64,000 nucleotides of DNA from a virus: IMG/VR virus record IMGVR_UViG_3300032267_001484; one strand, given 5' to 3'. This document shows positions 3,351 through 6,409 of this stretch, piece after piece. Position numbers and translations under genes: made by a program. The notes under the pieces were generated by a model. It saw only the letters and a list, made by a program, of their open reading frames with translations. It was not told where the DNA came from and made no database searches. The stretch's first letter is position 1, and each line of letters begins with the position of its first letter.

Positions 3351-3662
3351 ATTAGTTACTGTCTTCGACCTATTTATTTGTTATTTGTTATTTGTTAATT
3401 TGTTTTCTAATTTATCTAAACGTGAATCCATTGAACGAGTAATGTCATCAGCACGATCTGCTATTTCTTTGTAAACATTACTTATTTCATGGCTAAAATA
3501 CCTTTCTGTAGTTTCTAAATATTCTTTTACTTTATTTACCTTAACAAAAGCGTAAACAGCAACTATTGTTGTAGCAATAACCACCACAAACGCTATCCCT
3601 AAAATGAATGATAGTGTTTCCATAATTTGTTTTTCCTTATATGTCAAAGAACAGTAACTAAT
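3351..3662. repeat. inverted repeat pair (3351-3369 / 3643-3662) enclosing one ORF
   Basis: mRNA arms ATTAGTTACTG-T-TCTTTGAC and GTCGAAGA-CAGTAACTAAT: 19 bp, one bulge, one G.U. Confidence 0.8.
3381..3623 (-). CDS. single-TM coiled-coil membrane protein (start reassigned to METLSF)
   Basis: ATG at 3623 after an A-rich leader; TM plus coiled coil. Confidence 0.7.
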   Translation of the reverse strand: METLSFILGIAFVVVIATTIVAVYAFVKVNKVKEYLETTERYFSHEISNVYKEIADRADDITRSMDSRLDKLENKLTNNK

Positions 3663-3754: not shown

Positions 3755-4288
3755 TTAATACAACTTATCTAGTATAATAGATTCTACTACACTTTGTCTA
3801 CTAAATGCTTCTCGTTCCCATGGTCTCCTCTCATATTCTTCTTCCAAGATATAAACTTCACCTTGCCACTTTACTTCTTCATTTTCATATACTAATTCAC
3901 CTGATTCATACTGAAGGATATGAATTATTTCATGTGATAGAACTTCTATTGCTTCTGATTTATTAAGTGCTCCTACAAATAGATAGTATATTCCATTATG
4001 GAGTCTAATATGTGCTTTTAACTCACCATCAAATTGCTTTTTAGCAGCATCACTCATACCATTAATAACAACAGTTACTCCATTTAACCCAACACCATCC
4101 ATCCCTACTGCTAATATTGTATCATAGTAATGTATATTATCTAGTGAATTAACTATTGAATTTGTAGTTGGTAATTCTATTTGATTGAAATATTTTTCTT
4201 CACTATTACTAGTTACAGCTAAAATAGCTACAGTTACTAACCCTATTATTAGTAATGATATTCCTATTTTCTTAAAATCAAATTTCAT
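3755..4288 (-). CDS. membrane-anchored zincin-like (HEXXH) protein
   Basis: N-terminal TM; LSHEIIH and PWEREAF motifs. Confidence 0.7.
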   Translation of the reverse strand: MKFDFKKIGISLLIIGLVTVAILAVTSNSEEKYFNQIELPTTNSIVNSLDNIHYYDTILAVGMDGVGLNGVTVVINGMSDAAKKQFDGELKAHIRLHNGIYYLFVGALNKSEAIEVLSHEIIHILQYESGELVYENEEVKWQGEVYILEEEYERRPWEREAFSRQSVVESIILDKLY

Positions 4289-4444
4289 TATACAAATTTT
4301 ATTTGCAACTCTATTCTCCAGTGGAGTTGCTTTACACCGCTAACTGACGATTTAGAGGGGTAGTGTGCATTGTTAAGAGGCATCCCTGAGTTTTCGTTCC
4401 ACTGGCCTAGTGGCTGATAATTTAGGTGGCTCACTGTGTTCAGG

Positions 4445-4602
4445 CTGTCAAGGGAGGATTCGAACCTCCAAACTGCGATTCGATATTTGACAAAATAAGC
4501 CGGCTTTGTGGTCAACCCATATCTAAATACCTATTTCGTTTTTCAGCGCCCACGAGACGAGTGGGTGTGTTTGCCATGGATATACCCTTTCACCACTTGA
4601 CA
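4445..4602 (-). ncRNA. enlarged tRNA-like RNA (nominal anticodon GTC)
   Basis: Acceptor TGTCAAG/CTTGACA plus G; T-arm GGAGG-TTCGAAT-CCTCC; anticodon-like arm CCCAC-TCGTCTC-GTGGG; ~80-nt insertion in the variable region. Confidence 0.75.
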
Positions 4603-5782: not shown

Positions 5783-5814
5783 TAAATATACAAAAGTATT
5801 TTGCCCGAATCAAA
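5783..5814 (-). promoter_or_regulatory. Bacteroidota sigma-A-type promoter
   Basis: TTTG-N20-TATATTTA. Confidence 0.7.
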
Positions 5815-6409
5815 TAAGTCCTAAGGCTCTCATGTTTTCTAAATGATCTTCATCTAAATCCCATTCGTGTGTTACTGCTTTCGTTTGAACCACATCTTCA
5901 ACTTCTCTAACTTGGTCTGGGGTAAGTGGATCAGTAATAAGTAGAAAATAATCGTTGTAACAGAGTAACTCAAGATTATCAAGAAGATAATTATACTTAT
6001 TCCCATCCTTAAAATTTAATAGCAATGGTATTTTATAATCAGTTACTCTACGCTCACAGAAACCACAATGATAACATTCATCCTTTAAATAACCCTCAGC
6101 TATTAATCTTGACTTAATTTTTTCAACTGAAAATGATTCCCATCCTGTACCTGTTTCAACTATATTTTTAACATTAGGTTCTCGTCTTCGGTCAGGGAGG
6201 AATTTAGGTATTCCTTTTCCACTTTGGTTTTTATGTGTATCAAATAAAGTAGGTGAATTAGGGTCTAATTCGTCTACTCTAAATAGTTTAGCGTATGGTT
6301 TGTAATGTTGATATGAACATCCTAAGTAACGGGCAGCGGCACGATTTGATTTTGTGAAGCGCATTGCTCGCAGAATGTCTTCCTTACTAAGTGTTTTAGC
6401 TGCCGGCAT
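5810..6409 (-). CDS. HTH plus degenerate HNH-like domain protein
   Basis: SNRAAARYLGCSY HTH; CYHCG...DGNKYNYLLDNLELLCYN with the HNH histidines replaced. Confidence 0.65.
   Translation of the reverse strand: MPAAKTLSKEDILRAMRFTKSNRAAARYLGCSYQHYKPYAKLFRVDELDPNSPTLFDTHKNQSGKGIPKFLPDRRREPNVKNIVETGTGWESFSVEKIKSRLIAEGYLKDECYHCGFCERRVTDYKIPLLLNFKDGNKYNYLLDNLELLCYNDYFLLITDPLTPDQVREVEDVVQTKAVTHEWDLDEDHLENMRALGLI

Follow-up and report, generated by a model that had tools for sequence, protein, structure and literature searches.

The DNA analysed here is a stretch of 64,000 nucleotides (nt) from IMG/VR virus record IMGVR_UViG_3300032267_001484, referred to below as the window, and our subject is a gene in it for an RNA that resembles a transfer RNA (tRNA). 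The window belongs to a large phage of the Bacteroidota type, with a G+C content of about 30% and small, densely packed genes, and encodes a family B DNA polymerase, a ribonucleotide reductase, GroEL and an endolysin; the best match of its GroEL is that of Flavobacterium phage immuto (57% identity). The element sits between two small open reading frames (ORFs) without named function. A preliminary description of this DNA had reported a 158-nt element with a perfect acceptor stem of 7 base pairs (bp) and a T arm, an expanded D region, and an anticodon loop lacking both U33 and a purine at position 37. Each of these features is present, on the minus strand, the expansion of the D region being an extra hairpin and the loop reading UCGUCUC, with C33 and U37. 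The parts of the gene, as defined by sequence and by covariation-supported structure, are as follows.

4602 (U1) to 4445 (G73), minus strand: whole tRNA-like RNA gene, 158 nt
4602-4596 and 4452-4446, minus strand: acceptor stem UGUCAAG / CUUGACA, tRNA positions 1-7 and 66-72, 7 bp
4595-4567, minus strand: D arm of tRNA-Leu type, with U8 G9, a 3-bp stem, A14 A15, an inserted hairpin and G18 G19
4595-4594, minus strand: U8 G9, between acceptor stem and D stem
4593-4591 and 4569-4567, minus strand: D stem GUG / CAC, positions 10-12 and 23-25, 3 bp
4587-4578, minus strand: hairpin GGGUAUAUCC, inserted in the D loop between A15 and G18
4565-4549, minus strand: anticodon-like arm, stem and 7-nt loop
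4565-4561 and 4553-4549, minus strand: anticodon-like stem CCCAC / GUGGG, positions 27-31 and 39-43, 5 bp
4560-4554, minus strand: anticodon-like loop UCGUCUC, positions 32-38 (C33, G34 U35 C36, U37, C38)
4547-4472, minus strand: variable arm, 76 nt, from position 45; in order V1 (GCUG/CAGU), a 5-nt bulge, V2 (CGA/UCG), an internal loop (AAUA/GAA), V3 (about 11 bp, in two parts) and the apex
4519-4508, minus strand: invariant apex motif UGGGUUGACCAC
4506-4497, minus strand: perfect palindrome AAGCCGGCUU at the arm tip
4470, minus strand: U48, the Levitt partner of A15
4469-4453, minus strand: T arm GGAGG-UUCGAAU-CCUCC, positions 49-65
4445 and 4444, minus strand: discriminator G73, then the invariant C74; CCA is not encoded

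The element has the features of a full tRNA (cloverleaf, 7-bp acceptor stem, 5-bp T stem and conserved core bases) together with the long paired variable arm and 3-bp D stem of a class II tRNA. Its D loop has three nucleotides between G19 and position 22. The discriminator base G73 is Ser-like (tRNA-Leu and tRNA-Tyr have A73), while the triplet at the anticodon position is GUC. Standard finders pass the element over. ARAGORN, which the preliminary description had proposed as a check, called a tRNA-Leu(UAA) and a transfer-messenger RNA (tmRNA) in the window and missed the element; Rfam 15 returned the same two RNAs only, with no match at the element even at E <= 10, RF00005 included. The fold of the single sequence is unremarkable (z = -1.0), and the case for the element therefore rests on sequence comparison rather than on folding energy.

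A family of phage RNAs supported by covariation

Relatives of the element were sought in IMG/VR by exact-pattern scans with three motifs, which returned 3, 62 and 90 contigs, and by a looser three-block pattern, which gave at least 120 matches. After model checking, at least 91 distinct phage relatives remained (individual loci are designated by L numbers below). All of these lie within tRNA clusters, and every unusual feature of the element is kept in them. An alignment of 61 distinct phage members, analysed with RNAalifold, recovered the cloverleaf and a variable arm of four helices. For a structure of 37 pairs that we defined, standard base pairs fill 98.9% of the cells, compared with 39-47% when the partners are slid by 1-3 columns; compensatory changes on both sides of the pair occur in 24 of the 37, and none of 500 shuffles matched any of the observed pairing measures. 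The support extends to the individual stems. The seven pairs of the acceptor stem and the five of the T arm are formed in 100% of cells, with compensatory changes in six and three of them, respectively. Pair 11:24 of the D stem changes from U-A to C-G in 6 sequences, and pair 30:40 of the anticodon-like stem is found as A-U (40), U-A (12), G-C (4) and C-G (2). In the variable arm the helices (V1, V2 and the two parts of V3) are 94-100% paired, with compensatory changes in 12 of 17 pairs. A covariance model from homologues, as called for in the preliminary description, was built, and its structure is supported by covariation.

This model, R1, was made from the 61 relatives with the window sequence included. 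It matches the window element along its full length at 167 bits, a score to be expected of a sequence used to build it, and independent phage members at 125-162 bits. The E-values of R1 and of a second model described below are rough; the bit scores are unaffected.

Against this background of covarying helices, a set of bases is invariant or nearly so: U1-A72, G73, C74, U8, A14, A15, G18G19, the T loop, CGUCU in the anticodon-like loop, and UUGACCAC in the apex of the arm. The pair U1-A72 is present in 61 of 61 aligned sequences and in all 91 distinct members. Among these 91, the anticodon-like loop reads UCGUCUC in 69, UCGUCUA in 9, CCGUCUC in 6, CCGUCUA in 3, UUGUCUC in 3 and CUGUCUC in 1. 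U37 is therefore universal (91/91) and C33 nearly so (87/91), contrary to the U33 and purine-37 rule of the canonical anticodon loop. The window element carries the whole signature of the family, namely U1-A72, G73, a loop of the YYGUCUM type and the arm element GGGUUGACCAC. The D-loop hairpin is more variable. It is optional, being absent from L086 and L103, and in other relatives it is swapped for different, mostly palindromic hairpins or for a longer hairpin with the loop CUCAGUU. The longer form marks one subgroup (L113, L252, L265, L267, L231, L257, L246), in which the loop of 6-7 nt, CUCAGU(U), is conserved and constitutes a second loop of anticodon-loop size.

Other routes to relatives gave nothing: blastn found no cultured relative in 50,697 phage records, R1 found none in Flavobacterium phage immuto, and a search for related loci by their flanking proteins found zero. 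We also found no description of this RNA family in the literature. The comparative data indicate that the element is a real and strongly conserved gene. The possibility raised in the preliminary description, that homologues would be ordinary tRNA-Asp genes and this copy a lone degenerate, does not agree with at least 91 distinct relatives that share its features. Its view of the element as a non-decoding mimic and not the product of simple decay is well supported, on sequence comparison, by the giant arm, pyrimidine 37 and invariant CGUCU common to all relatives. We consider it very likely that the element specifies a functional non-decoding tRNA-like RNA that is handled by the tRNA machinery, and it is probably a previously undescribed helper RNA of tRNA-like form rather than a decayed tRNA.

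The variable arm and its palindromic tip

Across the family the base of the arm has a constant plan (V1, a bulge of 4-5 nt, V2, an internal loop RAYA/GAA and V3) and covaries freely. Within the arm, covariation in the family alignment backs the pairs GAUA/UGUC and GGUAUUU/AAAUAUC. The preliminary description had proposed that a long hairpin, including a TTGAC/GTCAA helix, fills the variable region. The arm of 76 nt bears out the first part of this proposal; the helix is not supported, as UUGACCAC does not vary in any of the 61 aligned phage members, whereas relatives do not conserve the stretch proposed to pair with it.

The tips of the phage arms bear perfect palindromes of 8-12 nt. When distinct segments following UUGACCAC were examined (n = 54), 98% contained a perfect palindrome of at least 8 nt, compared with 5.5% of shuffles. 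The palindromes derive from about 10 unrelated cores (14 strings if nested variants are included), among them GCCGGC, GCUUGCAAGC, GCUAGCUAGC, GCUGCAGC, GCUCGAGC, AGCAUGCU, GCGCGCGC and GCAUGCAUGC. As a hairpin within a monomer the tip is marginal (-0.2 to -5.6 kcal/mol); in cofolding calculations an intermolecular duplex of two tips is favoured by 12-20 kcal/mol at standard state. The consistently palindromic tip suggests that the phage RNA works as a homodimer, and selection for self-complementarity through the centre of the tip element would fit such dimers. A neutral alternative is that a mutational bias could turn near-palindromes into perfect ones. Chromosomal copies of the RNA, described below, mostly lack the tip palindrome and have other hairpins in its place.

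Two other readings of the arm were rejected. A mini-ORF in the apex, AUG-GGU-UGA, was dismissed because its AUG is not conserved, and a small self-cleaving ribozyme or riboswitch because the arm has no Rfam match.

Chromosomal copies and an AsnC-like neighbour

The strict phage pattern occurs at 113 places in 185,579 representative genomes, and one of 100 scored places passed the covariance model, this being a 3.6-kb contig in a Bacteroidetes bin. The models themselves were run on a sample of 151 Bacteroidota genomes (identifiers G001-G152). R1 found full-length matches of 111-214 nt in 13 chromosomes at 53-115 bits, ordinary tRNAs scoring at most 43 bits. A second covariance model, R2, was built from the chromosomal copies; it recovered the same genomes and one more, 14 of 151, and otherwise nothing above class II tRNAs. 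Over both models the 14 RNA-bearing genomes score 53-148 bits, compared with at most 59 bits for ordinary tRNAs. Rfam and ARAGORN miss the chromosomal copies too.

The chromosomal copies keep U1, G73, C74, the Leu-type D arm and the same arm plan. Their loops read UUGUCUC, UCGUCUC or CUGUCUC, so that position 37 is always a pyrimidine and U33 is present in most. The arm element GGGUUGACCAC is kept in 9 of 16 copies and GGGUCGACCAC is found in a tenth. Some chromosomes have two copies of the gene, as in L287 (G041), L288 (G145) and L289 (G137), spaced by 100-220 nt in G041 and G137 and by about 2.4 kb in G145; G137 has a minimal form of 111 nt without the GGGUUGACCAC module. On this comparison the element is the phage copy of an RNA family common to large Bacteroidota phages and some Bacteroidota chromosomes.

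A divergently oriented gene of the Lrp/AsnC family, encoding 154-167 amino acids (aa), lies beside the RNA gene in 8 of 13 chromosomal loci. Five of these regulators were tested against NCBIfam; the AsnC equivalog matched over its full length at 152-170 bits, below its curated cut-off, and Lrp matched at 45-54 bits. In Escherichia coli, asnC and asnA, the latter a gene for asparagine synthetase, are divergently oriented. Since the AsnC-like gene is divergent from the RNA gene, the latter holds the place that asnA has in E. coli. At one locus (G073) a neighbouring class II synthetase was considered as AspRS or AsnRS and rejected, the enzyme being LysRS. In the sample as a whole, GatB occurs in 126 of 151 genomes, AsnA in only 4, of which 3 have no GatB, and AsnB-type enzymes in 83, a distribution which suggests that tRNA-dependent amidation is the common state in Bacteroidota.

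Comparison with known tRNAs and tRNA-like RNAs

The closest canonical relatives are the class II tRNAs, in particular bacterial tRNA-Leu, which fall within RF00005. The element shares with tRNA-Leu the cloverleaf core, a 3-bp D stem with the pattern UGGYG(R)AA...GGYAKAC, the A15-U48 pair and a variable arm that starts from position 45. The covariance models R1 and R2 score class II tRNAs best among canonical tRNAs (32.9 bits for the window tRNA-Leu, 33.5 for T4 tRNA-Leu and 29.2 for T4 tRNA-Ser). The arm of the element, however, is 76 nt long as compared with 13-21 nt in class II tRNAs, and unlike tRNA-Leu the element has G73 in place of A73, a loop with C33 and U37, and a D-loop hairpin, and is missed by ARAGORN and RF00005. 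A tRNA-Sec or an allo-tRNA was rejected, the arms being of the 7/5 type and the UCA anticodon absent.

The closest phage precedent is provided by the species 1 and 2 stable RNAs of T4 (rnaC and rnaD), which are 139 and 119 nt long and lie at the end of a tRNA cluster. The rnaC product has a tRNA-like T arm and terminus, as does the element. The T4 RNAs differ in having no full cloverleaf and are not homologous, R1 giving 13 bits on rnaC and no match covering rnaD. To our knowledge the function of the T4 RNAs is still unknown and no chromosomal counterpart of them has been described. Bacillus cereus tRNA-Other is a tRNA mimic that acts outside normal decoding. The bacterial Y RNA YrlA is likewise reported to be a tRNA-shaped non-coding RNA that is handled by tRNA enzymes and stands outside normal decoding (PMC4201824). 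Its termini form a Ro-binding stem, whereas those of the element form an acceptor stem, and no Rfam YrlA match to the element was obtained at E <= 10, so that the Y-RNA-like scaffold suggested in the preliminary description gains no support.

Should the asparagine reading given below be right, the closest functional analogy would be tRNA-Asn of the pathway composed of a non-discriminating AspRS and GatCAB. The element resembles tRNA-Asn in U1-A72, G73, G34 and U35 and in the presence of host GatB in all RNA-bearing genomes, and its link to asparagine comes by way of the AsnC-like neighbour. It is unlike tRNA-Asn in having GUC and not GUU, a non-decoding loop, a giant arm and an enlarged D loop, the last resembling the antideterminant that prevents amidation of tRNA-Asp (PMC1635274). 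In addition, the product formed on the element would be unusable in translation without miscoding.

Possible functions

Our leading mechanism, which we put forward tentatively and as well short of probable, is that the RNA serves as an asparagine-linked carrier off the ribosome. RNase P and 3' processing enzymes would cut the element out and CCA would be added as in a tRNA; we infer RNase P maturation, 3' trimming and CCA addition because the tRNA core is intact and tRNAs lie 1-6 nt away. The host aspartyl-tRNA synthetase would load aspartate by way of the invariant G34-U35-C36 and G73, and GatCAB, cued by the invariant U1-A72, would convert this aspartate to asparagine. The Asn-charged RNA would be kept off the ribosome by C33, U37 and the giant arm. 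With its GUC triplet, such an RNA would put asparagine at aspartate codons, and it would therefore make sense for C33, U37 and a bulky arm to have been selected. The RNA would thus serve asparagine supply as a carrier or cofactor away from the ribosome, switched in hosts by the neighbouring AsnC-like regulator and carried as an auxiliary gene by AT-rich phages with asparagine-rich proteins, the phage form acting as a homodimer through the arm tip. The most specific version of this mechanism, in which a carrier for the conversion of Asp to Asn is AsnC-switched in Bacteroidota, was captured by large AT-rich phages as an auxiliary metabolic RNA gene and dimerizes in phages through the palindromic tip, for instance to scaffold a transamidosome-like particle, we regard as quite doubtful.

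Several observations are consistent with a role in asparagine supply. The identity elements for aspartate include G34, U35, C36 and G73 (PMC9976931), and U1-A72, by which bacterial GatCAB distinguishes Asp-tRNA(Asn), its substrate, from tRNA-Asp (PMC1635274), is present in the element and in all members. GatB is found in all 14 RNA-bearing genomes. AsnA is rare, being found in 4 of the 151 genomes. GatB and a class II synthetase of the Asp/Lys/Asn type (Pfam tRNA-synt_2) are absent from 5 near-complete RNA-bearing phage genomes, so the phage RNA must rely on host enzymes; an AsnB-like enzyme is encoded in 2 of the 5.

A number of results weigh against this mechanism. An extra D-loop nucleotide (U20A) blocks the amidation of tRNA-Asp (PMC1635274), and the D loop of the family has an extra nucleotide after G19, and often a whole hairpin in phages, in conflict with what GatCAB tolerates. 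Bacterial tRNA-Asp has a strictly conserved G1-C72 pair, on which bacterial AspRS normally relies (PMC9976931), and the element has U1-A72 instead. The presence of GatB carries little information, since it occurs in 126 of the 151 genomes regardless of the RNA and 14 of 14 is not significant (p about 0.07). We had predicted that RNA-bearing genomes would be without AsnB-type enzymes, and this prediction failed: 12 of the 14 have such enzymes over the curated cut-off, compared with 83 of 151 overall, and the RNA is therefore not the sole route to asparagine in them. Apart from the AsnC-like gene, the genes that flank the chromosomal RNA vary and are mutually unrelated. Finally, serine identity is specified by a long variable arm, G73 and G2-C71, with no contribution of the anticodon to recognition by SerRS (PMC9976931), so that SerRS may equally fit as the charging enzyme. 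The body of the RNA is Leu-like, tRNA-Leu being the canonical tRNA that the models score best.

Other explanations account for different parts of the evidence. The RNA could be a decoy or sponge in the conflict between phage and host, titrating a tRNA-directed nuclease, toxin or modifying enzyme of the host that recognises a GUC-type loop or the tRNA body; it would then be a poor substrate on account of C33 and U37, with affinity or dimerization added by the arm. Such a role would accord with the invariant CGUCU between non-canonical flanks, with the position in phage tRNA clusters and the retention by phages that have very few tRNAs, such as that of the window, and with a palindromic tip that would suit a dimeric target; phage tRNAs are also known to change their anticodon loops and so evade host nucleases (PMC10264068). 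We nevertheless hold it rather unlikely. The RNA is chromosomal in 14 of 151 Bacteroidota genomes, where it lies beside an AsnC-like regulator, which fits a purely anti-defence origin poorly and points instead to an amino-acid-linked cellular role, and none of the genes adjoining the element was seen to be a defence gene; the anticodon-nuclease decoy of the preliminary description loses ground on the same evidence. In a second alternative, to which we also assign a low likelihood, the RNA is architectural or protein-binding: the tRNA body would provide processing and stability, and the arm, with its RAYA/GAA loop, UGGGUUGACCAC and palindromic tip, would be the working part that binds a conserved protein or forms dimers or multimers. 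The most conserved bases beyond the tRNA core do lie in the arm and are common to phage and host copies, and the palindrome is maintained through about 10 unrelated cores with cofolding in favour of the dimer. This explanation does not account, however, for U1-A72, G73 and the CGUCU loop being invariant; in phages no gene for a partner protein is linked to the RNA, since the ORFs on either side are of no known function, and the palindromes could also stem from a mutational bias that perfects near-palindromes.

That the RNA is a true, if unusual, decoding tRNA, charged with Asp or Ser and reading GAY codons, perhaps for recoding in infection, seems improbable to us. It would explain the complete tRNA core, the GUC at the anticodon position in nearly all members, the U33 of a few phage members and most host copies and, for serine, the identity set of long arm, G73 and G2-C71 (PMC9976931). 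It is difficult to reconcile with a pyrimidine at position 37 family-wide, with the C33 usual in phages, or with an arm about 4 times longer than that of any known class II tRNA; moreover, normal tRNA-Asp coexists with the RNA, and serine at aspartate codons would be harmful. A decaying tRNA pseudogene, or a signal that acts only in cis in the processing or termination of the tRNA operon, would agree with the failure of standard finders to detect the element, yet is scarcely credible given at least 91 distinct copies with 24 covarying pairs and invariant loops and the conservation of the family between phages and chromosomes. A processing signal, which the preliminary description had also entertained, would in addition leave the conserved arm and loop unexplained.

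The RNA-gene cluster of the window and of related phages

The RNA genes of the window are the element and two others on the same strand.

3748-3663, minus strand: tRNA-Leu(UAA), the same-strand neighbour of the element (ARAGORN, Rfam)
3017-2628, minus strand: tmRNA of the same RNA-gene cluster (ARAGORN; Rfam, 84.6 bits)

A tmRNA is present within the DNA around the element in most of the related loci. That of the window encodes its CCA and has an unusually long predicted tag, DEMSTMTFEDLMSFVGADYALAA; near-identical long tags occur in most related phage loci and short tags such as ANEYALAA in some. In many relatives a tRNA, often tRNA-Ser(UGA), precedes the element by 3-6 nt, and in relatives including L091, L034, L038 and L021 it ends 1-6 nt before tRNA-Leu(UAA). 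Phages with 20-26 tRNAs (L005, L027, L064, L089, L099) also have a normal tRNA-Asp(GUC), and the element is therefore an addition to tRNA-Asp and not a substitute for it.

In the window the element is separated from tRNA-Leu by an ORF of 177 aa (3755-4288, minus strand) with an HEIIH motif of the HExxH type, for which only PHROG matches of unknown function were found. Directly 3' of the element, between it and this ORF, is a conserved non-coding block (4289-4442, minus strand) that begins CUGAACACAGUG. In relatives these two RNA genes lie 1-6 nt apart; the ORF and the block together look like an insertion. Near-identical blocks lie 3' of the element in L014, L039, L057, L006 and L037. The block contains a covarying hairpin (CCACU-AGGCC-AGUGG as compared with CCG-CAGGCCA-CGG) and a common stretch, GCGGUGUAAAGCAACUCCACUGGAGAAUAGAGUUGC; it belongs to no Rfam family and gave only a weak abiF match of 20 bits. 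Many loci (L002 at about 1650-1700, L001, L003, L004, L013, and the window at about 3655, just 3' of tRNA-Leu) have a conserved motif, GTTACYGTTCTTTGACATATAAGGAGAAAC, after the RNA genes. The motif immediately precedes a gene for a small membrane protein, homologous to window ORF 3381-3647, and resembles a phage promoter or ribosome-binding region. Also near the cluster is an ORF of 199 aa (5810-6409, minus strand) with an HNH endonuclease match (phrog_14736, E 5e-10), which recalls the homing endonuclease genes within the T4 tRNA cluster (segB).

Three proposals concerning this setting were rejected. The element is not a second or two-piece tmRNA, as G3-U70 and a tag-coding part are absent and a complete tmRNA is nearby. 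Pairing of its loop with the phage tmRNA amounts to a 6-nt match, as expected by chance. RNase P RNA or a plastid origin, considered on account of a few RNase-P-like words, is contradicted by the absence of an Rfam match and by a gene content that is that of a large phage.

Significance

Only a few tRNA-like RNAs, among them YrlA, the T4 stable RNAs and tRNA-Other, have roles other than decoding, and most are poorly understood. To these the comparison would add a large and cleanly defined family, comprising at least 91 distinct phage sequences and found in about a tenth of the sampled Bacteroidota genomes, which has been missed by ARAGORN and Rfam 15. Judged by its sequences, the family appears to keep every signal for tRNA maturation and charging, and yet has features that should bar its entry into the ribosome. 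The strictly palindromic arm tip is a rare and clear comparative signal of RNA self-association. Phages almost without tRNAs still keep the RNA, beside a tmRNA. Taken together, its retention by tRNA-poor phages and the position of the host copy at an asnA-like place offer a concrete and testable lead to what may be a new connection of tRNA-like RNAs with amino-acid supply and with phage infection.

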